Assembly: GCA_964595645.1 (NCBI GenBank)
Contig: CAZQQT010000001.1
Location: 64,001 to 128,000 of the forward strand
Length of the DNA: 64,000 bases
Direction of reading: 5' to 3'
Source: an uncultured Thermococci archaeon
Lineage (GTDB): Archaea; Methanobacteriota_B; Thermococci; Methanofastidiosales; B48-G16
This document shows, in pieces, positions 8,579 through 44,300 of the stretch. The translations under genes and the position numbers were made by a program. The notes under the pieces are model-generated. The model was given only the letters and a program-made list of their open reading frames with translations. It did no database searches and was not told the DNA's origin. Each line of letters begins with the position of its first letter. Position 1 is the stretch's first letter.

Positions 8579-10846
8579 ATGGTTGAAGAAATATCCCTTG
8601 ATGCGGACGACGAGGTCCTCAAGGAGCTCAGTCAAAAACTCGGTATAGGATTGAATTTGGAAGAAATGCATTGGGTACGGGACTATTTCGATTCTGAAGG
8701 GAGAAATCCTCGCGATATTGAGCTTCAGGCTGTTGGACAGGCGTGGAGTGAACACTGCTCGTATAAGTCATCAAAACCCATACTACGGAAGTTTATTTTC
8801 GGTATAGAAGCAGAACAAAATCTAAAGGTTATTGAGGAGGATGCAGGTGTTGTGGAGTTTGATGATGACTACGCGTACGTTGTTGCACTCGAAAGTCACA
8901 ATCATCCCTCAGCAATAGAACCCTACGGGGGAGCGGCCACGGGAATCGGAGGGATTCTTCGGGACGTTGTCTGTATGGGCGCGCAACCGGTAGCCCTGGT
9001 TGATCCGTTGTTTTTTGGCAGCCTCAATTTTGAGTACAAAAATCTTCCCCAAGGAGTGAAACATCCACAGTTTATTCGTGATGGTGTCATCGCTGGAATC
9101 CGTGACTACGGAAATAGAGTTGGCATTCCCACCGTTGCAGGAATGATATATCACGATAACTCGTATCTCACAAACTGTCTTGTGAACGTTGGCTGTGTGG
9201 GTATTGTTGAGAAGGATCACATCACGAGCAGCCGAATCTCCAAAGATACGGGAGAAACAGGGGACGTGTTTCTCTTACTGGGAGGCCGAACAGGACGAGA
9301 TGGTATCCATGGCGTCACCTTCGCCTCCACAGAACTCAAAGAAGAATCGGAAAAGGAAGATAGGAGCGCCGTTCAGGTAGGAAATCCGATTATCAAGGAG
9401 CCATTGATACACGTCTGCCTTGAGGCTGTGGAGAGGAACCTGATTAAAGCGATGAAAGACCTCGGCGGAGGTGGATTGAGCTGCTGTGTTGACGAGATGG
9501 CATATCCACACTTTGGCGCTGAAGTCACCTTGGACAAAGTGTTCCTGAAAGAGGAAGATATGGAGCCATGGGAGATATGGATTTCAGAGTCGCAAGAACG
9601 AATGATGATGCTCGTGGACAACGAGAATGTCAATGAGATCATTGATATCTGCGAGCTCTGGGATATTGAGTACGGTATCATCGGTGAGCTCACGGAAGAT
9701 AAACGGATAAAGGTTACCTACCATGGAGAACAGATTCTCGACATGGACATTGGGTTTCTCGTGGAGCCGCCGGAATATGATAGACCATACACGATACGAG
9801 AAATAGAGGAACAGGAAGAGGAAACAGAGGAGCCGCAGTATGAAGAAACGATCCTTGAACTTCTGAGCTCCCAAAATATACGGCGGAAGGACCTTGCGAT
9901 ACAGCAGTACGATCACGAGGTGAGGGCGTGTACAGTGACCAAACCGCTCCAAGGAAAAATTGAATCGCCTACCCATTCCGATTCCGTCGTTATGAAACCT
10001 CTCCCTACTAGATGGCAAGGAATAGCTCTGGCCACGGACAGTCATCCCTCCCTCATGAAGAAAAGCCCTTACTGGGGAGCACGGTACATTGTGGACGAAG
10101 TCTGTAGGAACATTATCGCATCGGGAGCCCGACCCCACTCCTTCGCGGACTGCCTAAACTTCGGCAACCCGGAGAAAGAGGAGCGGATGGGCGAGTTCTA
10201 CGAGGCCTGCCGAGGTCTCGGTGAGTATGCAAAGGCACTGGGCATTCCCTTTGTGTCCGGCAACGTGTCCTTCTACAATGAGAGTGAGTACTACAGTGTG
10301 ACGCCCACCCCTGTCGTTCTTGGTATAGGTATCATCGATGACATCAGAAAGAGTATCACTACAGATTTCAAGAGTAATGGCGATCTGATCATCCTCATCG
10401 GGGATCTGAAAAAAGAGATGGCAGGTTCCGCCTACTACAACCTTCAGGGGTATGAGTTTGGGCATATGCCCAAATGTGATCCAGAGAAGCTCAAGAAGAA
10501 AATGAATGCGCTACTGGAAGCAAAAAATTTCATTGAGGCATGCCACGACGTGAGTTCGGGGGGTCTGGCTGTGACTGTGTGCGAGATGATGGTGGGGGGA
10601 GATATCGGCGCATCTCTCGATCTGAGCGGGATCTCTATGAGAACAGATTATTCACTGTTCTCCGAGCCATCATGTTTTGTCTGTGAGATACAGAAAAAGC
10701 ATTTTAATGAGTTTGTAAAAATAATGGAGAACCACAACGTCAGTTACCACGAAATAGGCAAGGTGTCTGGAGAAGCACTGGAAATTGTAGACAAAGACAA
10801 AAAAATAATGCTTCCGCTTTCCAAAATAAAGGAGGCGTTTTTATGA
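8579..10846 (+). CDS. purL: FGAM synthase subunit PurL
   Basis: WSEHCSYKSS, ESHNHPS, GGAATGIGGILRD, DLGGGG, SESQERM, DCLNFGNPE. Confidence 0.97.
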   Translation: MVEEISLDADDEVLKELSQKLGIGLNLEEMHWVRDYFDSEGRNPRDIELQAVGQAWSEHCSYKSSKPILRKFIFGIEAEQNLKVIEEDAGVVEFDDDYAYVVALESHNHPSAIEPYGGAATGIGGILRDVVCMGAQPVALVDPLFFGSLNFEYKNLPQGVKHPQFIRDGVIAGIRDYGNRVGIPTVAGMIYHDNSYLTNCLVNVGCVGIVEKDHITSSRISKDTGETGDVFLLLGGRTGRDGIHGVTFASTELKEESEKEDRSAVQVGNPIIKEPLIHVCLEAVERNLIKAMKDLGGGGLSCCVDEMAYPHFGAEVTLDKVFLKEEDMEPWEIWISESQERMMMLVDNENVNEIIDICELWDIEYGIIGELTEDKRIKVTYHGEQILDMDIGFLVEPPEYDRPYTIREIEEQEEETEEPQYEETILELLSSQNIRRKDLAIQQYDHEVRACTVTKPLQGKIESPTHSDSVVMKPLPTRWQGIALATDSHPSLMKKSPYWGARYIVDEVCRNIIASGARPHSFADCLNFGNPEKEERMGEFYEACRGLGEYAKALGIPFVSGNVSFYNESEYYSVTPTPVVLGIGIIDDIRKSITTDFKSNGDLIILIGDLKKEMAGSAYYNLQGYEFGHMPKCDPEKLKKKMNALLEAKNFIEACHDVSSGGLAVTVCEMMVGGDIGASLDLSGISMRTDYSLFSEPSCFVCEIQKKHFNEFVKIMENHNVSYHEIGKVSGEALEIVDKDKKIMLPLSKIKEAFL

Positions 10847-21222: not shown

Positions 21223-21777
21223 TTAGAGGCCAACGGACTCTGTCAAGTACATGAGTAGAAGAAAGAGCAGTGAGAGAAGGAGCATGACAATCCACGGATT
21301 GAGATGAAGCAGCTCTGGAATAGTTACTGGCCCCATCTCATTTTCGTGAATGAATGTCTCCCGTATTCTTGGGTAGACCGAAGCAAAAACGCCTGCACCA
21401 ATCATGATACCCACCACACCGATCATTGCATGAAGAGAGCCTGTCCCCATGGCACCAGCGGCTGTGCCGGGACAGTACCCAAGTAGCGCAAAGCCAGCAC
21501 CGAAGATGAGACCTCCACTAAGAATCGCCCTCACTCTGCACGGTTTGGGATGGAGCTCAGCATAGTCGAGTGTCACGAGGACATACAGCCCTATCATCCC
21601 TGTGATTACCGCAGTAGCGATTATTTTAAATACTCTAAAATCTTTCAGGAGAAGCTGATTAAGAATGAGGGAATACTCAGTTACACCACCCTTATCGAGA
21701 AGAAATCCAAATACAATGCCGATCCCGAAGCCAATGATGAGTTGCACTCTTTTCTTTTTGTGCAACGCTTCAAGCAT
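21223..21777 (-). CDS. YeeE/YedE-family sulfur-compound transporter half (PmpA-like)
   Basis: GIVFGFLL, GGLIFGAGFALLGYCPGT; start directly follows the upstream stop. Confidence 0.88.
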   Translation of the reverse strand: MLEALHKKKRVQLIIGFGIGIVFGFLLDKGGVTEYSLILNQLLLKDFRVFKIIATAVITGMIGLYVLVTLDYAELHPKPCRVRAILSGGLIFGAGFALLGYCPGTAAGAMGTGSLHAMIGVVGIMIGAGVFASVYPRIRETFIHENEMGPVTIPELLHLNPWIVMLLLSLLFLLLMYLTESVGL

Positions 21778-22293
21778 CTATCCACCTCCAAAAAGGAGGA
21801 ATGCGGTGAAGATTCCCCCGATGAAGAACATGATGAGTGCTAACCAGCTTCCTACGGCGAGCTGCAATGTCCCGCTAATACCGTGTCCACTCGTACAGCC
21901 ACCGGCCATCCGCGCGCCGAATCCAATGAGAATTCCGCCGATAAGCGCGGCGAAAAATCGCAAGATAATACTTCCACCAAATGTGTTGTTCCATAGCGTG
22001 GGGATCAGTTCAATTCTGAAACTTCCGGAAATGAGTGAGGAGAGAAATGCTCCAACCACAACACCGAGGACGAGCATCCACTCCCAGTCGATGGTTGGAA
22101 GAAACTCTTTGTAGTAGAGCCGTTCCTTTACTTTTTCACCACGTAGTGCCGTCTCAGTCATTCCTGCTGTTCGGGCGTATGCAGTGGAACATCCTATCGC
22201 CTTGTCAGACAATAGGAAGCTCAACCACACTAGCACACCGATCCCCATACCGACGACATAGGGTGACCACAGTTCCTCGAAAAGAGGATTCAT
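21778..22293 (-). CDS. YeeE/YedE-family sulfur-compound transporter half (PmpB-like)
   Basis: WSPYVVG, IGCSTAY, GFGARMAGGCTSGHGISG. Confidence 0.9.
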   Translation of the reverse strand: MNPLFEELWSPYVVGMGIGVLVWLSFLLSDKAIGCSTAYARTAGMTETALRGEKVKERLYYKEFLPTIDWEWMLVLGVVVGAFLSSLISGSFRIELIPTLWNNTFGGSIILRFFAALIGGILIGFGARMAGGCTSGHGISGTLQLAVGSWLALIMFFIGGIFTAFLLFGGG

Positions 22294-22333: not shown

Positions 22334-22927
22334 TTAATGGAGTATTTCTGCAAATACTTCATGCGGCGTGATGCAGATATGTGGCATTATTTCTTTAAAC
22401 CCTTCTATTATCTCGGGGAGTTCGTGAAATTTTTCATGCGATTCTCTGTCTTTCCAGTAGGTTAACATCACGTACTCAGTAGGTTTAATTTTAATTTCTT
22501 CATACTCACCAGGAATCATTTCTCCACCGAATGATATATTTGTTGTTCTCACTACCTTTGTGCCGATAAATCCCTTCTTATCCATGGTTATTGTGCAGAG
22601 ATCCTCTACTTTTTCTTCAAATTCCTCTTCATGGCCCGGTTTGACTGAGAGATAGTTAACTGCTACGATAATGGGCTTACCAACGTATTCATAGTCGTCC
22701 AGTGTGGATGGTGGTATCTCCGAAGCATTTATGTCGTTTTCCGTGAGATACTTTACCGCCATTTTCGATCGCTTGGCTCGTGGACCACAGTAGACTTTCA
22801 CATCTTTATCCTTCAGAAAATCCAGATAGAACTCAAGATCCCATACTGGAATGTTCAATGCACCTTTTATATGGTTTCTATAGTATTCTTCTCTTGTTTT
22901 TACATCTAGAATCAAATCTTTTCCCAT
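22334..22927 (-). CDS. Rhodanese domain fused to an ABM-fold domain resembling one half of sulfur oxygenase reductase
   Basis: LDVKTREEY..HIKGALNIP, VYCGPRAKRS; C-terminal LCTITMDKKGFIG, TYWKDRESHEKFH, PHEVFAEIL. Confidence 0.75.
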   Translation of the reverse strand: MGKDLILDVKTREEYYRNHIKGALNIPVWDLEFYLDFLKDKDVKVYCGPRAKRSKMAVKYLTENDINASEIPPSTLDDYEYVGKPIIVAVNYLSVKPGHEEEFEEKVEDLCTITMDKKGFIGTKVVRTTNISFGGEMIPGEYEEIKIKPTEYVMLTYWKDRESHEKFHELPEIIEGFKEIMPHICITPHEVFAEILH

Positions 22928-23073
22928 ATTTATCCTCTCCTTTCCGTTGAATTTCTATAGAAGGATTTATTACTAGCTATATAAAATTATCGTTCGAATT
23001 TCGGATCAATAAAAGGAAATATGTTCGAACTAAGTACTACACTCATAAAAAAGGATAGAAAAAAGAAAAAGAT

Positions 23074-23394
23074 TTATGTATGCTCGAGTCCCTCAAGCAT
23101 ACCTTTCATATTCTCAATGTACTCCTTGAATGCCTTTCTCCCCGTGTCAGTGAGAGAGAGCATTGTGTGAGGTTTTTTATCGACGAACTCTTTCGTGATC
23201 TTGACATATCCCGCATCTTCGAGTTTACTGAGGTGTGAGGAGAGGTTCCCTGAAGTCAGTTCCGTCTGTCGTTTGAGAAAGAGGAAGTCCGCGCTTTCCA
23301 CGACGTAGAGATGTGCCATGATGTTCAGTCTGGCAGGTTCATGAATTGTCTTATCGATCTCTCCAATGGACTGAAGATCATCTTCGTGTGTCAT
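23074..23394 (-). CDS. Winged-HTH (HTH_34, ArsR/MarR-like) transcriptional regulator
   Basis: IDKTIHEPARL, LTSGNLSSHLSKLEDAGYV, LTDTGRKAF. Confidence 0.9.
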   Translation of the reverse strand: MTHEDDLQSIGEIDKTIHEPARLNIMAHLYVVESADFLFLKRQTELTSGNLSSHLSKLEDAGYVKITKEFVDKKPHTMLSLTDTGRKAFKEYIENMKGMLEGLEHT

Positions 23395-23974
23395 TGAATA
23401 CCTCCTTCGTTTTCAGACTAGGATATTTTCGAAGGAATCGAATAAACAGTCCCATTCCGATAGCCATCATTATAGTTCCCGGTATAGCATATGCTATGGC
23501 AGGAAGGGGTTGATCGAGGAGTTCTCCTGCCCCAAACGTTGCAGCTATCAATATTCCATATATATAAAGGCGTTTAAACTCCATATAGTATGCCACCATA
23601 CTGAAAATAAATGTTATCAGTATGAACATAAGCACACTCCTCACCAAGACCGAGAAATCGGGAAATAAGACCATCAGCACCGTACTTGTGACGAACACTG
23701 ATATGACGAGCCCTAGTATTAGCTCTGTCCGCTTTTTTTGTCGTTCGGGTCCAAACTTTACCCGCCCTAAGCGCGGAGTAGTAATCAGTTTTTTCCCTGC
23801 AACCATCCCTCCAACTGCCACGAATATGAGGAGCGTGGTATAGGGATTACCGGTGTATGTTCGAATTGCTCCTACCAGCATCATCATGCCAAAAAACATA
23901 TCCCACATACCGTCTTGGAAGTAAGAAGTCCACGCTTTTTTCTCGATTTCTTGTAGGTCAATACTCTGCGTCAT
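23378..23974 (-). CDS. Hypothetical multi-TM membrane protein
   Basis: YFQDGMWD, ITTPRLGRVKF, RFLRKYP; overlaps the regulator start. Confidence 0.75.
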   Translation of the reverse strand: MTQSIDLQEIEKKAWTSYFQDGMWDMFFGMMMLVGAIRTYTGNPYTTLLIFVAVGGMVAGKKLITTPRLGRVKFGPERQKKRTELILGLVISVFVTSTVLMVLFPDFSVLVRSVLMFILITFIFSMVAYYMEFKRLYIYGILIAATFGAGELLDQPLPAIAYAIPGTIMMAIGMGLFIRFLRKYPSLKTKEVFNDTRR

Positions 23975-24247
23975 AAGTATCACTCACCTTCTTTTCTAGT
24001 TCTTTTATATTCATAGTTTCTGTCATTTTTTGTCACCTTTACATAACATATATCTTCGCCCTTTAAAATGTTTGTATCACAAAGTAGTTTACTGAATAAA
24101 AAGAATAATACCTTTTGATGTATATAACTAATTTAGTATTATACAAGCGAAAAGTTTATATACAAGAATTTACTTGTACAACGTAGAGAAGCCCTTAGAG
24201 TTACCACCTGAAAGGGCAGAGATACCCCGATAAAAAATTAAAGGATT

Positions 24248-32915: not shown

Positions 32916-33446
32916 TTATGAGATCTTGTCGATCATTCGTTGTGAGAGATTGAGGTGGTCACGTTCTATTTCCACCAATGCTGTGAAAAACTCCACAAGT
33001 TCTGGCTCTACTGCTTCTGAGGCAAACTGTTTGTAGTGCTCTATCGCCCTATCTTCTCGTTCATGCGAATCTTTGTAGTTATCCAGCGCCTCTGAAGCAC
33101 ATTTTTCAAATTTTGGGATTTCTTTTTCGGGGACATCGATTAATTCTGCCAGCGCTTCTGCATGTTCTGCTTCTACTTTTCCCAATCGTTTAAAAATCGC
33201 TGCATCCTTTTCCGATTTAGTTTTTTTCGATGCACACTTATAAAATTTTGCGTTGTCTATCTCAAGATCTATCGCTTTCAAAATATTCTCTCTACTCTTT
33301 TCGCTGACGTTATCAGCTCTCAACCGCGTGTAATCTTCTATTTTTTTGATGTACTTTTCATGCGCTCCACAGTACGGACAGTTTTTTGGTTTGGTCTCAC
33401 CGAGGTACGTCTCTCCGCACACTTCACATCTAAACGGTTCAAACAT
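32916..33446 (-). CDS. Rubrerythrin-like protein (N-terminal rubredoxin, ferritin-like di-iron domain)
   Basis: CEVCG...CPYCGA; EAEH and ERDH ExxH motifs. Confidence 0.88.
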   Translation of the reverse strand: MFEPFRCEVCGETYLGETKPKNCPYCGAHEKYIKKIEDYTRLRADNVSEKSRENILKAIDLEIDNAKFYKCASKKTKSEKDAAIFKRLGKVEAEHAEALAELIDVPEKEIPKFEKCASEALDNYKDSHEREDRAIEHYKQFASEAVEPELVEFFTALVEIERDHLNLSQRMIDKIS

Positions 33447-37630: not shown

Positions 37631-39532
37631 ATGGCGTTGAAGGCCAAATCTATACTAAGAAAATTAAGAAAAAAGAAAAAATCTTCGAAGAAAGAATCCA
37701 AAAAATCTAGTTACGATAAATTTAAGGAGAAGAAGGAATACGATAAGATTAAAAAATATGCAGAAGAATACGGCCCCCTACCCGGTGAATCAAAGGAAAC
37801 AAGAATAAATATGGGCGATGGGAGAAAATCTGGAGAGTCAGAGGAGCCACAATCTTCCCAACGTGATTCCTCTCCTCGAGAAGAGAGTTCCCAGAAGCGG
37901 GTGCGTGCTGGAGATGCCACATTTGTTATTGAAGGCCCAGTAACCTTTGAGGGAGGTGTCATCCCCTCAATGGAGGAAGAAAAGAAGATTTTGAAAAAAG
38001 AAGACGATGTCCTGGCGATTCCGGACGAATGGAAAACAATGGATTATACCGGTCACGACGAACGGTATGCGCTCCAGGAAAACAAAAGTTTTGCACACAT
38101 CTACTGGGATAAGGAGAACGAAGTATTGCAGTATGATGTGATCGAGCCTAAAATGAGCAGTGATGAGGAGAAGTCCCTGATCAGAATTGAAGGGATCCTT
38201 GGCGAGGAACTGGAAGCGGATTTCCAGAAACTCGGTGAAAGTGAAGAGCTTGTAGCGTATATACGGACAAAAGTTAGGGAAGTCTGTAGTGAGCTGGGAA
38301 TCAAACTCTCGAAGGAGAGTTTCGAGAAGGTAATGTACTATATCACCAGAGATTATATCGGGCTAGGAAAAATTGAGCCCCTTCTTCACGATATTCACAT
38401 TGAGGATATCAGCTGTGACGGTACCGGAATTCCCGTCTACGTAGTGCACAATAAGTACGGCAGCTTGCCGACCAATATCTCCTTTAACTCTGATGATGAG
38501 CTGAACGGTCTCGTAATCAAAATGGCACAGCGATCGAACAGACATATCTCTGTATCCAGCCCCCTCCTCGATGGGAGACTTCCCGATGGAAGCCGAGTAC
38601 AGGCGACCTTTTCACGAGAAGTCACACAACACGGACCCACGTTCACGATACGAAAGTTCCAGACAGAACCCATGACCCCCACCATGCTCATCAACTACAA
38701 ATCATGTCCACCGCGACTCTTTGGCTACATGTGGCTCGCCCTTGAGCACTCGTATACTGCATCCACCCTTGTGTCAGGTGGTACTGCGACGGGAAAAACA
38801 TCAATGTTAAATGCGCTTTCTCTCTTTCTCCCATCCACCGCAAAAATTGTGACAATAGAGGACACGCAGGAGCTCAACCTCCCCCACGAACACTGGATCC
38901 CCTCAGTTACAAGAACGGGATTTGGTGGAATGGATGTGTCCGGAAAAAAACAGGGAGAGGTTACCATGTTCGAGCTGCTGAGGGCAGCACTTCGACAGCG
39001 GCCTGATTACCTTGTGGTGGGAGAGATCCGAGGTGAAGAGGCGAACGTGATGTTCACCGGTATGGCGACAGGCCACCCTGGAATGGGAACAATCCACGCC
39101 GATTCCATGGAAGCACTGATCAACAGGCTCACCACACGGCCGATAGAACTTTCACCTGCGCTACTGCAGTCTCTGAGCGTCGTCGTCCTTCTCACCCACG
39201 CAAAAAAAGGAGGAAAGACGATACGACGAACGAAGGAGATCATGGAGATCACCGGTGTCGATCTGAAGGCTGGAGAACCGATCTACCAGAAGGTGTTCGA
39301 ATGGAGCCCCTCCGAGGATACCTTTAAGTTCGTGGCGAGGGAATCAAATGTGGTGAAACGAATCGCGCTCTCCCGTGGAATGGAACAGGAAGAGGTATGG
39401 GAGGAAATCAACAGACGGAGCAAAGTGCTCACATGGATGGCATCGAATAATATTGTGCACTATAAAGATGTGGGCAGAATAATTCAGGCTTACTCACGAA
39501 ATCCAGATAAAATATTAGATAGAATAAAGTGA
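37631..39532 (+). CDS. Type II/IV secretion / pilus assembly ATPase (PilB/FlaI/TadA family)
   Basis: IEDISCDG, LPDGSRVQ, FTIRKF, Walker A GGTATGKT, IEDTQEL, ALRQRPD, GEIRGEE, GHPGMGTIHA. Confidence 0.95.
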   Translation: MALKAKSILRKLRKKKKSSKKESKKSSYDKFKEKKEYDKIKKYAEEYGPLPGESKETRINMGDGRKSGESEEPQSSQRDSSPREESSQKRVRAGDATFVIEGPVTFEGGVIPSMEEEKKILKKEDDVLAIPDEWKTMDYTGHDERYALQENKSFAHIYWDKENEVLQYDVIEPKMSSDEEKSLIRIEGILGEELEADFQKLGESEELVAYIRTKVREVCSELGIKLSKESFEKVMYYITRDYIGLGKIEPLLHDIHIEDISCDGTGIPVYVVHNKYGSLPTNISFNSDDELNGLVIKMAQRSNRHISVSSPLLDGRLPDGSRVQATFSREVTQHGPTFTIRKFQTEPMTPTMLINYKSCPPRLFGYMWLALEHSYTASTLVSGGTATGKTSMLNALSLFLPSTAKIVTIEDTQELNLPHEHWIPSVTRTGFGGMDVSGKKQGEVTMFELLRAALRQRPDYLVVGEIRGEEANVMFTGMATGHPGMGTIHADSMEALINRLTTRPIELSPALLQSLSVVVLLTHAKKGGKTIRRTKEIMEITGVDLKAGEPIYQKVFEWSPSEDTFKFVARESNVVKRIALSRGMEQEEVWEEINRRSKVLTWMASNNIVHYKDVGRIIQAYSRNPDKILDRIK

Positions 39533-39536
39533 GCGT

Positions 39537-40436
39537 ATGGCGGATGAAAAAGGCACCCTTGTGAGGTATGGAAAGTTTTCCCACAGGCTGTTACATGGGT
39601 TTGTGCAACCGATGTTAAAGTACTTTGAAGACCTCTCTCCGTACTTACGGAAGGCCGATATCTCCATGAATCTCGGTGCGTATGTATCTGCAATGATAAT
39701 GAGCTCTCTCATTGTGTTTGGCGTGGTGTTTTTCCTCTTCGTCTTTTTTTATCCAATATTCTCAACAATTTCTATTTTTGAACAGGTTTCTTATTCAATG
39801 TTTACTGGTTTAGTATCTATTTTCTCTTTAATAGGAATTTTCTTCTTTTTTTGGCTCTACCCATCGTTTAAAACCTCTGAGCGGAAGAGAAAGATCGAAA
39901 ACGGGCTTCCCGCCGCAGTGGATACCATGGCGACGATTGCGAGTACTGGTGTGCCCCCCGCAGTGATCTTCTGGTCTCTCGTGGAGTACCGAAGACACGG
40001 AGAAATCTCGCGGGAAGCGGAGAAACTGTTGAACGATCTCGAGCTCTTCGGGCTCGATCTCGTCTCGGCACTTCAGCGGGCCGCCATGCGCTCTCCGTCC
40101 CCTTCATTGAGCGAGATGTTCTGGAAAATGATTGCCACTATACGAACGGGCGGTGATCTGAAGGAGTACCTCTACGTGGAGGGAACGAAGCTCAGAGAGC
40201 GACAGAGGAGACAGATAGAGGAGTCGATCGATACCCTCGGGATGGTGGCAGAGCTATATGTGACAGCGCTGGTACTCGGTCCTGTCTTTATCATTATTAT
40301 GGTGAGTATTATGGGGCTTATGGGCACAGGAACGGAGACGCTGACGATGCTTCTGCAGGCGCTCATCTATATAGGATTACCCGTAGGTTACGCACTGATC
40401 CTTATTATCATCGATCAGGTCCAGCCGGAGGTGTAA
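39537..40436 (+). CDS. TadC/PilC-type (T2SSF domain) membrane platform protein
   Basis: RKRKIENGLP, MATIASTG, GLDLVSAL..RSPS, IRTGGDL. Confidence 0.9.
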   Translation: MADEKGTLVRYGKFSHRLLHGFVQPMLKYFEDLSPYLRKADISMNLGAYVSAMIMSSLIVFGVVFFLFVFFYPIFSTISIFEQVSYSMFTGLVSIFSLIGIFFFFWLYPSFKTSERKRKIENGLPAAVDTMATIASTGVPPAVIFWSLVEYRRHGEISREAEKLLNDLELFGLDLVSALQRAAMRSPSPSLSEMFWKMIATIRTGGDLKEYLYVEGTKLRERQRRQIEESIDTLGMVAELYVTALVLGPVFIIIMVSIMGLMGTGTETLTMLLQALIYIGLPVGYALILIIIDQVQPEV

Positions 40437-40440
40437 GCTC

Positions 40441-41253
40441 ATGAACAAAATGAACTATGTGTTTTTTGGCGTCAGTGGAATTCTCGGTGTGATTGTGTTT
40501 CTTGTGGGATTCCTGTATTTTCGGGACTCGATGTTTTTCTCAGGGTTCCTGCTCGCGGCATTTTTCCTGATCTTCGGACCGTATCTTATCTACAAGTTCA
40601 GAGAGCAGGCATGGATATCAGAGATAGAGGATCAGTTCCCAGATTTCCTTCGAGCGCTGGCGGAGGCCCAGCGGGCGGGCATGACGCTCCCACAGGCCGT
40701 CTATATGGCACGAAGTGACGATTACGGAAGGTTGAGTCCGGAAATCAAGAAGATGGCTGCCCAGATTTCGTGGGGTCTTTCATTTAGCGATGTACTCTCA
40801 CAGTTTGCAGAGCGGTCCAAAAGTGGAAAGGTGCAGTCAACGGTCTCGCTCATTATCGTGGCGCACCATGCCGGTGGTGATATCGTCCAGATTCTCGAGG
40901 CGGCATCGGACTCTGCGAGAGAACGGCAATCCTTGGCAAAGGAACAGGCCTCACAGATGCAGCAGTATGTAGGTATTATCTATATGGCGTATTTTATCTT
41001 CATTGGTGTTGTGTACCTGATAAAAACGCAGTTTATTGAAGTGTTCGGTGATATCACGCTCCCCATGCAGTCAGAGCCGATTCCGGTGGATATATACAAT
41101 GAACTCTTTTTTGCAATGTTGCTTATCCAGGGAGGCCTCGGTGGACTGGTGGCTGGAAAGTTCTCCTCCGGATCTATCTTCGCCGGATTGAAACATAGTA
41201 TTCTCCTAATCATAGTTGGATATCTCGCATCTGTTTTTGTACTAGGGCTGTAG
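40441..41253 (+). CDS. Second TadB/C-type (T2SSF domain) membrane platform protein
   Basis: IEDQFPDFLRALAE..AGMTL, YGRLSPEI, ISWG, AGGDI, GLVAGK..GLKH. Confidence 0.9.
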   Translation: MNKMNYVFFGVSGILGVIVFLVGFLYFRDSMFFSGFLLAAFFLIFGPYLIYKFREQAWISEIEDQFPDFLRALAEAQRAGMTLPQAVYMARSDDYGRLSPEIKKMAAQISWGLSFSDVLSQFAERSKSGKVQSTVSLIIVAHHAGGDIVQILEAASDSARERQSLAKEQASQMQQYVGIIYMAYFIFIGVVYLIKTQFIEVFGDITLPMQSEPIPVDIYNELFFAMLLIQGGLGGLVAGKFSSGSIFAGLKHSILLIIVGYLASVFVLGL

Positions 41254-41265
41254 AAATAATACCAT

Positions 41266-41279
41266 GGAAAAGTTTAAAA
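41266..41279 (+). promoter_or_regulatory. BRE/TATA promoter of the pilin operon (probably leaderless)
   Basis: GGAAAAG-TTTAAAA about 25 nt before ATG 41304; no RBS in between. Confidence 0.55.
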
Positions 41280-41303
41280 GATTAGGAAACGCTAGTTAAT
41301 ATA

Positions 41304-44300
41304 ATGAATAAAAAAGCTCAGTCAGAAGTGATCGCAGTAATGTTAATTTTAGGGATTACAGTAGCTGCTGTAGCTGTGGCGTATAGATGGGCGGCACCCC
41401 GTGTTCAGGAAAGCCAGAATAAATCACGAATCGATTCTATGATAGGATTTATGGAGGAGCTGGATAGGAAGATCCGTGAGGTTGCGAACGCTGGAGAGGG
41501 ATCACAGCGGTTTATTGATGTTGAGTTCGATAAAGGACAGATTTTGATTCATCCTCCTCCAGGAAATAACGTCATGTATCAACTTGTTTCTTATACTCTC
41601 ACACCAGCAGAGCTCCCTGCCAATAAGAATCTACCGTACGGGAGCTATCTCCGGATACGACAAAACGAGGAAAATCAGGATATCATCGAAGTAGTGTTAG
41701 AGTATACAGATGTGGAGCTAGAGGCCGAAGTTCCGGAAGCAGAGGAGGTAGTACTATCCCCAATGCGATACACTATTTACATACGAAATATGGGAGGAAA
41801 CGTCGTGAGGCTCAGCCGAGAACCGGCGTATATTGGGACGACAGAACGGTTTCTGTTGAGCGGCTATGTCTATGATAACTCGGGAGATGAGGGTATACAG
41901 CTTTCTCCAGACGCCGATGGCGATTATATCAAGGATGAGGAGAACGAGATCATCCCTAATGCGGAGATCTTACTTCTCGATTCGCAGGGAAATGTCGTAA
42001 CCTCGACGCGAAGCAACTCCCACGGAAAGTATGCGCTGTTACTGCAGCGGCGGCTTACTGCGGAAGCTGGGCAGTACTACTTTGTGGTGAGTAAAAGTTC
42101 CTACGTAATGAAAGAGTGGGATGGCTCAGTGGAAAATGTCAAGTGTGAGAAGTATACGAAGGATTTCGATTCAACGTCTCCCGAGGGCTGGGATTTCAGT
42201 GTGAGCCCGTATGAAGATAGAGACGAGATCAGAATAGATTTTCCGCTCTACAAGGTTGAGCCACCAGACGTGCTGGAAAACGCGCCGATAGCGATAATCG
42301 TCGATCATCAAATAACAGAAAATAAAGGAATTGTTTATGATATCCGCGATGCACTGGACAATGATGAAAATACGCACTGCGGGAAGTTTATCGTGTATGG
42401 AAATGTTTCAAACCCAGATCAAACAGTAGCTGGGGAGTACTTCCAGTATCCCGGTACGAGTGATCCAATCTACGCGTATCCGCTGGAGTGGCTGTTAGAC
42501 CCCGATGAAGCGAGAGGAGTCGATGAGTACGGGTGGGGAGACGCCGATCTCAACGACAGGTTTACCCAAGTAGCTTCTATCGGTGGAGAGGAGGACAAGA
42601 TTGACTACCATGATTTCTCGTTGATAGTAGTAGGTACAGGCGCCATTCAGCAGAGTGGGCTACTTACCACACTCCAAACATACCGGGATACCTTCACCAA
42701 CTTCGTGTCGTTAGGGCGATTCACACTGAACGGTATTGAGTACGCCCGAGGATTAGTAGTTTTCCCACAGATACAGGGTTATGGATCGTATGATCCACTC
42801 TTGTACTACTATGATGGTACAAAGAGACCTACAGGCTCATATACGTACGACGATGGAGTAGAGGTAACCGATGAAACGATGGAGTCTATGCACAATGACG
42901 GGGAGGTCGATGAGAACTTCTTTTTGCAGGATGCGATGGGCCATGATGACGAACGGTACGGCAGTGAAGAAGCGTATTCATGGCTACCGCAGTTTATGGG
43001 GGAGGATTTAAGGCTTACTTCCTTCACCGGCGTGACAAACTCCCAGGGAATTACTATTGCTACTCTTACATCATTCTCAACGCCACAGGACGTGGTACTT
43101 CAGGCTACGGCACAGGGTGCATCTGTGCAGACCTCCATTGAGTTCTTCAGGAGAATCACCGTGGAGACACGCCATACGACTCTCGGAGCGAATGGGGCGG
43201 ATGAAACAACCATTACTGCCACGGTACGGGATGAGAACGGAGTGTTAATGGACTCGGAAAACGTTACATTCACTACTGATGCAGGAACGTTTGCGGAGAA
43301 CCCTGGAAATCAAACATACTCTCTTACTACTGATAGCGATGGAGTTGCGACAGCGACACTGGTCGCTGGCTCCAGTGCTACAACAGCTACTGTACAATGT
43401 GAACTTGACGCAGATTCGAGTGTGTATGGGACTTTGGAAGTTGATTTTGATACAGGAATCACATTCAGACTTACCGAGGAGGATGATAATGGCGATGGCA
43501 CATTCAATGATAGTGGCGATTACTTTGATTACAAACTTGCAGCTGATGGATCCTCCCAAGCGAAATTTACTGCCGCTGTTGTAGCACCAAGCCTAGTAAA
43601 CCCGATATCAGGACAAAAAGTTTATTTTTACACGGATCACGGATCATTAAGTAGTAGTACAGCCACTGCAGATGCGAACGGAAACTGTGAGGTAACACTC
43701 ACCTCAGATGCTCAGCCGAGGAAGGATAATACCGTGATGGCCGAGATCAAACTCTACGATAACGGAGAATGTGTGTACAGTGATGAAGATGCCAATAATG
43801 AAGTAAGTGCTGGTGATATACGGCTCGATTCAAACTGTGGCGATGTGAATTCGACTGTGACAAGTGGTGATTCAGACATCGGGAATGAACTCACAGAATT
43901 TAACTTCTACGAGAAATACTACGACGATGATGGCAGTGGAAATTATACTTCAGCTGATACAGTGTATAGAGATACCAATGATGATGGCGATGTTGATGCA
44001 GGAGATTACAGAATCACGTATTACCATCAGGGAGGAGCGGATGAAGAAGCTCCTGGAGAGGTGCAGGCAGGAGATAATGACGTTGGAAACGTGCTTACAG
44101 CCTTTGCGTCTGAGGAAAAATTTGTTAACTCCACGATCAACTACCAGAAAACGGTGGATATAGATTTTGTCGGTACACACGCCTATACTACTCTCACTTC
44201 GGATCTCGGCGAGATACCGCTCACGCGGCTTGGAGACACTCCGATTGTTGCATTTACAGAGCTCACCGCAACGGTTTACGACTCTCAGGGGACGGCGATC

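Follow-up and report, generated by a model that had tools for sequence, protein, structure and literature searches.

A rhodanese fused to a predicted single-lobe relative of sulfur oxygenase reductase in an uncultured Thermococci archaeon

The window analyzed here is a 64,000-nucleotide (nt) stretch of DNA from an uncultured Thermococci archaeon (Methanofastidiosales, B48-G16; assembly GCA_964595645.1, contig CAZQQT010000001.1, positions 64,001 to 128,000). It carries a gene for a 197-amino-acid protein in which an N-terminal rhodanese is fused to a C-terminal domain resembling one lobe of sulfur oxygenase reductase (SOR), within the antibiotic biosynthesis monooxygenase (ABM) fold. An earlier note, made from the letters alone, had pointed to an open reading frame (ORF) at 22334-22927. 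The 197-amino-acid ORF is real, and all sequence strings and residue numbers quoted in that note were returned by re-translation, but the strand had been missed: the gene lies on the minus strand, and the plus-strand frame at these positions is full of stops. The gene and its parts are as follows.

22334-22927, minus strand: rhodanese/SOR-like ABM fusion gene, 197 amino acids, stop codon included (ORF list and translation)
22682-22927, minus strand: rhodanese domain, residues 1-82, with Cys47 in the CX5R loop YCGPRAKRS (Pfam, profile and model)
22337-22678, minus strand: SOR-like single ABM-fold lobe, residues 84-197, with C111, H164, H168 and E190 (Pfam, PDB searches, hhalign and conservation)
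22787-22789, minus strand: C47 codon
22595-22597, minus strand: C111 codon
22436-22438, minus strand: H164 codon
22424-22426, minus strand: H168 codon
22358-22360, minus strand: E190 codon

The assignment of residues 1-82 to a minimal PspE-like rhodanese with the catalytic Cys47 is well supported. The Pfam Rhodanese family matched residues 4-57 with 29.5 bits (cut-off 22.2), the family profile matched PspE (2jtq) at E 7e-9 in the PDB search, and VIA-align superposed the domain on 3k9r over 82 residues (Z 13.4, root-mean-square deviation (rmsd) 1.6). An AlphaFold2 model built on 35 homologues had a predicted local distance difference test (pLDDT) score of 88.4, and 93-98 in the rhodanese domain, where C47 was placed between strand 43-46 and helix 52-63, the position of the catalytic Cys in the rhodanese fold. 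Conservation was followed in 62 species-level loci, i.e., the window and 61 further full-length loci from species-representative genomes. C47 was kept in 60 of them and R53 in 59, the remainder being gaps or one Lys. The domain thus has the fold, the length (~80-85 amino acids) and the strand-helix Cys of single-domain rhodaneses (E. coli PspE 2jtq, GlpE, and Anabaena Alr3790 3k9r), and differs from them in its fusion to the SOR-like lobe and in a loop that is one residue longer in the window's clade. The latter was a caveat of the earlier note and proved correct: the seven-residue CX5R loop YCGPRxKR[ST] occurs in the window and throughout the clade of 62-100% identity, whereas the 36-55% clades have the canonical six-residue CX4R loop YC[DN][TS]GxR[AS].

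On the evidence of sequence comparison, residues 84-197 appear to be specifically related to the catalytic N-lobe of SOR, and this kinship is well supported. SOR (EC 1.13.11.55; PF07682; 2cb2, 6qjc, 7x9w and 6m35) was the best sequence relative among solved structures. With the single sequence, phmmer placed SOR chains at the top of the PDB matches (E 1.3e-5; query 88-169 on SOR 6-91). With the family profile, SOR was again best (E 1.9e-10; profile 86-193 on SOR 7-120), with a second, separate match to SOR 161-211, and the best non-SOR structures among the dozens of ABM proteins in the PDB reached only E 0.0075-0.02. Moreover, hhalign against an alignment of seven SORs gave a probability of 94.7% (E 6e-8, 110 columns). 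The resemblance that the earlier note had proposed is therefore beyond chance. The profile was also run exhaustively against 1.84 billion representative proteins and returned only 31 matches: the fusion family, stand-alone proteins of 110-150 amino acids with the pattern Cys...HxxxH...E, and true SORs (from Ferroplasma/Acidiplasma and Thermodesulfobacteriota).

The fusion lobe and SOR have the motifs AxN, C-x2-T, GFxG, TxW, HxxxH and PxE in common. C111, H164, H168 and E190 paired with Cys31, His86, His90 and Glu114 of SOR in phmmer, hmmsearch, MAFFT and hhalign alike, a result that speaks for the presence of the residues only. The SOR motifs given in the note agree with the solved chains (VCMVTARHPGFVG, TFWKDWKDHEEMH and GPWEPIYEII), and its spacings hold: 53 versus 55 residues from the Cys to the first His, and 21 versus 23 residues between the second His and the Glu. 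In SOR, His86, His90 and Glu114 bind the iron and Cys31 is essential (PMC7398979). The conservation check suggested by the note gave a clear answer across its ~60 species: C111, like W158, was found in 62 of 62 loci, and H164, H168 and E190, as well as N91, in 61 each.

Several features are compatible with a more ordinary explanation, namely that the protein is a generic ABM protein (a cofactor-free or quinol monooxygenase, or an IsdG-type haem degrader), its SOR-like residues being superfamily heritage and its rhodanese regulatory or inactive. Pfam ABM (PF03992) was the strongest family match (44.2 bits, cut-off 23.1). In the model, residues 84-197 form a beta-alpha-beta-beta-alpha lobe of ferredoxin-like fold with a long low-confidence beta2-beta3 loop (130-150), and VIA-align superposed it on 7bio with Z 12.7 (rmsd 1.7, 84 residues) and on SnoaB with Z 12.3. 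The small ABM proteins (PF03992: SnoaB, ActVA-Orf6-type, LsrG, YgiN and IsdG) have this fold in common with it (Z 10.5-12.7), and the best structural matches were RslO4, LsrG, SnoaB and MM_1583. Additionally, N91, W158 and H168 are spaced like the Asn/Trp/His triad of IsdG, and some homologues are named 'heme-degrading monooxygenase HmoA'. However, no IsdG or IsdI chain appeared in PDB searches carried up to E 1-10, where SOR stood at 1e-10, and the Asn, Trp and His positions also occur in SOR N-lobes. In generic ABM members the Cys, the first His and the Glu are missing, and the best of them reaches only E 0.0075 with the family profile (2e-10 for SOR). Because the fusion was the only ABM match in the host genome, class-level relatives supplied the generic ABM controls (four of nine ORFs, those correctly extracted), and these lack the Cys, HxxxH and PxE and keep only TxW. 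The SOR-specific Cys, first His and Glu, absent from these related archaeal proteins, are near-invariant in the 62 loci, the rhodanese Cys is invariant, and the rhodanese domain is confidently folded. Because no IsdG-type chain was matched and the SOR-specific residues are near-invariant, a generic ABM or IsdG function is disfavoured, and we regard it as very improbable.

The earlier note had named best matches to generic ABM proteins as grounds for abandoning its reading, and by fold this is partly what was found, such proteins matching as well as or better than SOR. Fold ranking was therefore discarded as a discriminator: generic ABM proteins and rhodaneses fill the Foldseek and VIA-align lists. 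What stands of that reading is that the C-terminal domain is a single lobe, specifically related to the SOR catalytic lobe by sequence, with the four positions conserved and fused to an intact rhodanese; the fold is not SOR-specific.

Approximately 100 homologous protein clusters with 40-82% identity carry the fusion. Their source names are 'rhodanese-like', 'antibiotic biosynthesis monooxygenase' or the HmoA name given above, as the earlier note had guessed that annotation pipelines would label them. The archaeal carriers belong to Thermoplasmatota, Hadarchaeota, Thermococci, Ca. Methanohalarchaeum, Saliniplasma/Natronoplasma, Bathyarchaeia, Hermodarchaeota, Aenigmatarchaeota and DHVE2, and the bacterial carriers are a few Syntrophaceae/Smithellaceae. 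All of these lineages are anaerobic as far as is known, in contrast to the hosts of SOR, which are aerobic sulfur oxidisers. The assignment of the fusion to a family of its own, carried by anaerobic archaea and a small number of syntrophic bacteria, is well supported. Among the papers searched, none describes a rhodanese-half-SOR fusion or a SOR of half size.

The host genome (1.97 Mb, 99.96% complete) was searched for haem-copper oxidase, bd oxidase and mcrA, and none was found in it; nor was a siroheme sulfite reductase. It does contain a superoxide reductase and several rubrerythrins, with the main cluster on contig 9. A second rhodanese/rubrerythrin neighbourhood lies outside the window on contig 8, where two multi-rhodanese ORFs at 39201-43631 (frames of 481 and 310 amino acids, two rhodanese domains each) are ~1 kb from two rubrerythrin genes.

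Neighbouring genes within 3.5 kb of the fusion were clustered without bias, and three patterns emerged: one in a clade of 62-100% identity (28 loci, the window included), one in Bathyarchaeia (12 loci) and one in a 36-46% clade (22 loci). In the window, two transporter genes follow the fusion.

21778-22293, minus strand: first YedE/YeeE-type half-transporter, 171 amino acids, 40 nt downstream of the fusion, with the Cys motifs GCST and GGCTSGHG (Pfam)
21223-21777, minus strand: second YedE/YeeE-type half-transporter, 184 amino acids, abutting the first, with the Cys motif GYCPGT (Pfam)

Both matched Pfam Sulf_transp, the first with 99.7 bits (profile 172-309; its NCBIfam TsuA/YedE-type matches fell under the cut-offs) and the second with 69.2 bits (profile 8-149). 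The halves are thus swapped relative to the fused Pfam model. This is the sole YeeE pair of the host genome (21223-22293). The two-gene pair adjoins the fusion in 18 of the 28 loci of the 62-100% clade (homologues of the first gene in 17, of the second in 18), and four gene orders were observed: downstream on the same strand (the window's arrangement), upstream on the same strand, convergent and divergent. These four orders argue for functional linkage rather than inherited synteny. In one of the loci with a divergent pair (L004, a 79%-identical homologue), Sulfotransfer_4 and TauE-type sulfite-exporter genes (8608-10184) also lie 3-4 kb from the fusion.

The transporter could also feed an O2-independent sulfur relay. 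The rhodanese would take thiosulfate or zero-valent sulfur from YedE/YeeE, as YeeD or TusA do for YeeE, and the SOR-like lobe would carry, reduce or disproportionate it (the reductase or disproportionation side of the chemistry of SOR), so that sulfide becomes available under anoxia for making cysteine and Fe-S clusters. The anaerobic host lineages, the missing terminal oxidases of the host and the adjoining transporter pair in 18 of 28 loci fit such a relay. In addition, the fused rhodanese could be the partner of the transporter, because the single TusA gene of the host is not beside YeeE. No siroheme sulfite reductase was found in the host, so it is not obvious how sulfite from an oxygenase could be assimilated. 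Against it, the relay leaves unexplained the rubrerythrin, ferritin, flavodiiron, superoxide reductase and peroxiredoxin operons of the distant clade (described below). Fe sites of the 2-His-1-carboxylate type typically activate O2. Moreover, both activities of SOR require O2 and Fe (PMC7398979), and YedE1E2 pairs are usually coupled to an O2-dependent persulfide dioxygenase (PDO) (PMC10812762). We therefore consider the relay unlikely.

The neighbourhoods of the other clades were different. In the 36-46% clade, the fusion lies among oxygen-defence genes in 10 of 22 loci, the neighbours being rubrerythrin, ferritin, peroxiredoxins, a flavodiiron protein and desulfoferrodoxin. The order in the DHVE2 locus L060 is flavin reductase, flavodiiron protein, peroxiredoxin, two rubrerythrins, the fusion, ferritin, desulfoferrodoxin, DUF308, 1-Cys peroxiredoxin and rubrerythrin, with gaps of 4-15 nt flanking the fusion. 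Rubrerythrin or MsrA/MsrB is nearby in some Bathyarchaeia loci. A DUF202-like two-helix membrane protein of ~130 amino acids is encoded ~30 nt downstream of the fusion in 7 of the 12 Bathyarchaeia loci (L040, L041 and L045-L049, e.g., L045:6608-6997); it was also seen at L001:6627-7025 and L006:5624-6016 and is 69% identical between two loci. Within the 62-100% clade, a ZIP-like membrane protein of ~200-230 amino acids is encoded ~70 nt upstream of the fusion in 10 loci (L015, L018, L021, L023, L025, L031, L032, L036, L037 and L050; e.g., L021:1121-1711) and is absent from the window. Several of these loci form the string yedE-yedE-ZIP-like-fusion.

These contexts might also suit a factor that donates Fe or S to, or repairs, Fe-S clusters or iron centres after oxidative damage, acting together with ferritin and rubrerythrin once the cell has met oxygen. 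The rhodanese would give persulfide sulfur, and the Cys/His/His/Glu site would hold Fe, or a labile cluster at the dimer interface, for delivery. L060 and related loci place the fusion directly between rubrerythrin and ferritin, a ZIP-like permease precedes it in the 10 loci just named, the repair genes msrA and msrB are near it in some loci, and the other rhodanese genes of the host are ~1 kb from two rubrerythrins. However, the ZIP assignment falls under the Pfam cut-off (32.3 versus 35.1 bits) and has no NCBIfam support, the conserved residues copy the SOR catalytic site rather than a known Fe-S scaffold or an RIC/YtfE-type di-iron site, and turnover of sulfane sulfur explains the YedE1E2 linkage better. 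A repair role thus seems quite unlikely.

The arrangement in the window has a bacterial parallel. Two-gene YedE1E2 imports zero-valent sulfur, typically adjoins pdo/blh and ArsR/SmtB regulators, and lowers reactive oxygen species; the gene arrays yedE1-yedE2-pdo and yedE1E2-blh are known, and in A. tumefaciens yedE1E2 lies upstream of blh (PMC10812762). In bacteria, PDOs often carry a fused sulfurtransferase, either a rhodanese or DUF442 (PMC12934615, PMC9163753, PMC5823870). Because the rhodanese/SOR-like gene sits in the PDO position beside the YedE pair, and because PDO-rhodanese fusions provide a precedent, we proposed that the fusion is an iron-dependent persulfide oxygenase analogous to those fusions, a proposal that could as easily prove right as wrong.

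The named counterparts are PRF of Burkholderia/Paraburkholderia phytofirmans (5ve3), S. aureus CstB and Xylella/Agrobacterium Blh. As in these proteins, a sulfurtransferase is joined to a domain that carries a non-haem Fe site of the 2-His-1-carboxylate type, which in the present case is predicted from the aligned residues. The operon partners there are also YedE1E2 or a TauE transporter, with an ArsR-type regulator nearby (PMC5823870, PMC10812762, PMC12934615, PMC9163753). The transporter described for the BigR operon is TauE-related (PMC5823870) and not YeeE. The rhodanese domain superposes on that of PRF (Z 11.0, VIA-align), and homology to the PDO fusions is limited to the rhodanese domains (3tp9, 3r2u and 5ve3). 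Their catalytic domain is of the metallo-beta-lactamase (ETHE1) type, whereas here it has the ABM fold and the rhodanese comes first, so the fusion is not a member of that group. The likeness is therefore analogy, not homology.

That the fusion is a cytoplasmic, two-domain protein is well supported, and a mechanism may be envisaged on this basis. Two ABM lobes would pair into an alpha+beta barrel with one mononuclear non-haem Fe per lobe. Cys47 of the rhodanese would accept sulfane sulfur, donated by polysulfide, thiosulfate or a low-molecular-weight persulfide, and hand it over to C111. The persulfide thus formed on C111 would be oxidised to sulfite by O2 at the 2-His-1-Glu Fe. This step would correspond to the oxygenase half-reaction of SOR, with the net chemistry of a PDO. 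The rhodanese might also make thiosulfate from sulfite and a further persulfide, a reaction of PDO-rhodanese fusions. In the window's clade, the two-gene YedE1E2-type transporter would supply zero-valent sulfur by import. An anaerobe would thereby remove O2 at no cost in NAD(P)H, keep its sulfane sulfur in balance, or both, where oxic and sulfidic zones meet. Given the YedE1E2 and oxygen-defence contexts, the role would shift from energy-yielding sulfur oxidation towards detoxification of oxygen and sulfane sulfur.

A number of results weigh against the persulfide oxygenase, and some of them against any name of SOR. The lobe stayed below the curated SOR cut-offs of Pfam (PF07682, 24.0 bits for a cut-off of 25) and NCBIfam (SulOxRed, NF047630, 17.8 bits for 400). 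SOR is a two-lobed monomer of ~310 (~300-320) amino acids, whereas the SOR-like part of the fusion is a single lobe of ~113 amino acids behind an N-terminal rhodanese, and the fusion has neither the second lobe, nor the CxxC motif, nor the elements that build the 24-mer sphere. The earlier note had itself cautioned that CxxC was absent. No counterpart of the Cys101/Cys104 pair was found, and the lone nearby Cys, C185, is not conserved: its place is mostly taken by Ser, and otherwise chiefly by Ala, Thr or Val. The missing pair is not disqualifying, because the C101A and C104A variants of SOR retain ~10% activity (PMC7398979). Since the curated cut-offs failed and the second lobe and CxxC are absent, the fusion protein is a SOR relative, not a SOR. 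It is best filed as a new single-lobe family that belongs to the ABM/dimeric alpha+beta barrel superfamily and is sister to the catalytic lobe of SOR. By structure, SOR ranked only 11th in Foldseek, with E-values similar to those of generic ABM proteins, and stood outside the top 50 of VIA-align, with generic ABM proteins above it; its place in VIA-align is not evidence against kinship, because the fold cannot separate SOR-like from generic ABM proteins.

The contexts carry counterweights too. Ten of the 28 loci of the 62-100% clade have no YedE, 12 of the 22 loci of the 36-46% clade have no oxygen-defence neighbours, and the bacterial loci are uninformative. A search of 40 GTDB relatives of the host (genus to class) did not recover the full-length fusion, the other matches being rhodanese-only; the gene is therefore accessory and patchy. 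A T5 tract immediately 3' of the stop codon could uncouple its transcript from the YedE genes. The seven-residue CX5R length is reportedly known from Cdc25/Acr2-type phosphatases and arsenate reductases, and for this reason the substrate of the rhodanese in the window's clade may differ. Finally, Fe binding, dimerisation and activity of the fusion are all properties that we infer, and an O2-using enzyme in hosts without aerobic respiration would be sensible only as defence, which we likewise infer.

The lobe also bears on the origin of SOR. Of 20 near-invariant positions of the domain, 72% are common to SOR N-lobes and 45% to SOR C-lobes, and four matches to the C-lobe are not in the N-lobe (E100, G135, P149 and Y152). 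Such a mosaic is as expected of an unduplicated SOR-type lobe, although it is only suggestive. The label 'ancestral' in the earlier note thus gains some ground from the mosaic and goes no further than a suggestion. A homodimer prediction of the ABM domain scored 0.31 where the mark was 0.42 and was weighed neither for nor against dimerisation. A more far-reaching idea joins these threads: a homodimeric 'mini-SOR' that would serve anaerobic archaea as a reductant-independent O2 scavenger, burning rhodanese-delivered sulfane sulfur at a 2-His-1-Glu iron, and that would represent the form, prior to duplication, from which the two-lobed, 24-meric SOR of aerobic sulfur oxidisers arose. This idea is tentative, and we hold it to be possible but doubtful.

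Stand-alone half-size SOR-like proteins (e.g., from Thermocrinis and Burkholderiales; named 'ligand-binding protein SH3', ABM or HmoA) have the same single lobe with C/HxxxH/E. They differ from the fusion in lacking the rhodanese, in having only 17-27% identity to the window's domain and in occurring mostly in bacteria, including sulfur oxidisers. Clusters of 122-125 amino acids with SOR and ABM Pfam families were also the nearest matches of a language-model search. Among other relatives of the lobe, P0129 (317 amino acids, Psychroflexus) has two lobes and a hydrophobic N-terminus, its second lobe having HxxxH and Glu without the Cys, and P0120 and P0125 (122 amino acids) are stand-alone proteins without the Cys in which Tyr replaces the second His. 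When longer fusions containing the SOR-like domain were sought, none was found, which is weak evidence, and a 539-amino-acid frame in L071, considered as a larger fusion, was an overlapping-frame artefact of high-GC sequence.

SOR has been regarded as a speciality of aerobic thermoacidophiles and is one of very few enzymes known to attack elemental sulfur. The present analysis adds a rhodanese-fused archaeal family, an anaerobic host range, the YedE1E2 and oxygen-defence contexts and the analogy to PDO-rhodanese fusions. Judged by its conserved residues and its gene neighbours, the fusion is a good candidate for an O2-removing enzyme that would work by oxidation of bound sulfur. If so, it would be a new component in the oxygen and sulfane-sulfur defence of archaea from sediments, vents and soda lakes, and a non-homologous counterpart of the bacterial PDO-rhodanese fusions paired with YedE1E2 sulfur importers. 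The origin of SOR by lobe duplication from a dimeric ancestor would become experimentally testable, and uninformative annotations on ~100 protein clusters would be corrected. Because the protein is small and soluble, decisive tests would be simple.

Upstream of the fusion gene, candidate expression signals were read off the sequence by consensus only.

22934-22986, minus strand: putative promoter and translation signals of the fusion gene
22978-22986, minus strand: TTTTATATA box, a plausible archaeal TATA box
22934-22940, minus strand: GGAGAGG, a putative Shine-Dalgarno sequence, 6 nt 5' of the ATG

The motif TTCGAAC is present twice on the minus strand, ~30 bp apart, within GTTCGAAC at 23023-23030 and at 22992-22998. 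Both copies lie immediately upstream of the putative promoter and TATA box, and the pair could be an operator of the fusion gene.

Further upstream (23074-23983, minus strand), a gene for a 201-amino-acid multi-pass membrane protein without a family match overlaps by 17 nt a gene for a 106-amino-acid HTH_34/ArsR-like regulator, and the two look like a separate two-gene unit. Neighbour clustering showed neither to be a conserved neighbour of the fusion. The regulator was considered as a BigR/SqrR-type persulfide sensor and rejected: unlike the regulators of PDO operons, it contains no cysteine, its place beside the fusion is not conserved, and NCBIfam BigR matched it only at E 0.14. Likewise, the membrane protein was rejected as the ZIP-like partner seen at other loci (BLASTP E 2.0, no family matches). 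Approximately 10 kb from the fusion, the window also carries a rubrerythrin gene (32916-33446, minus strand; Pfam match at 32937-33290).

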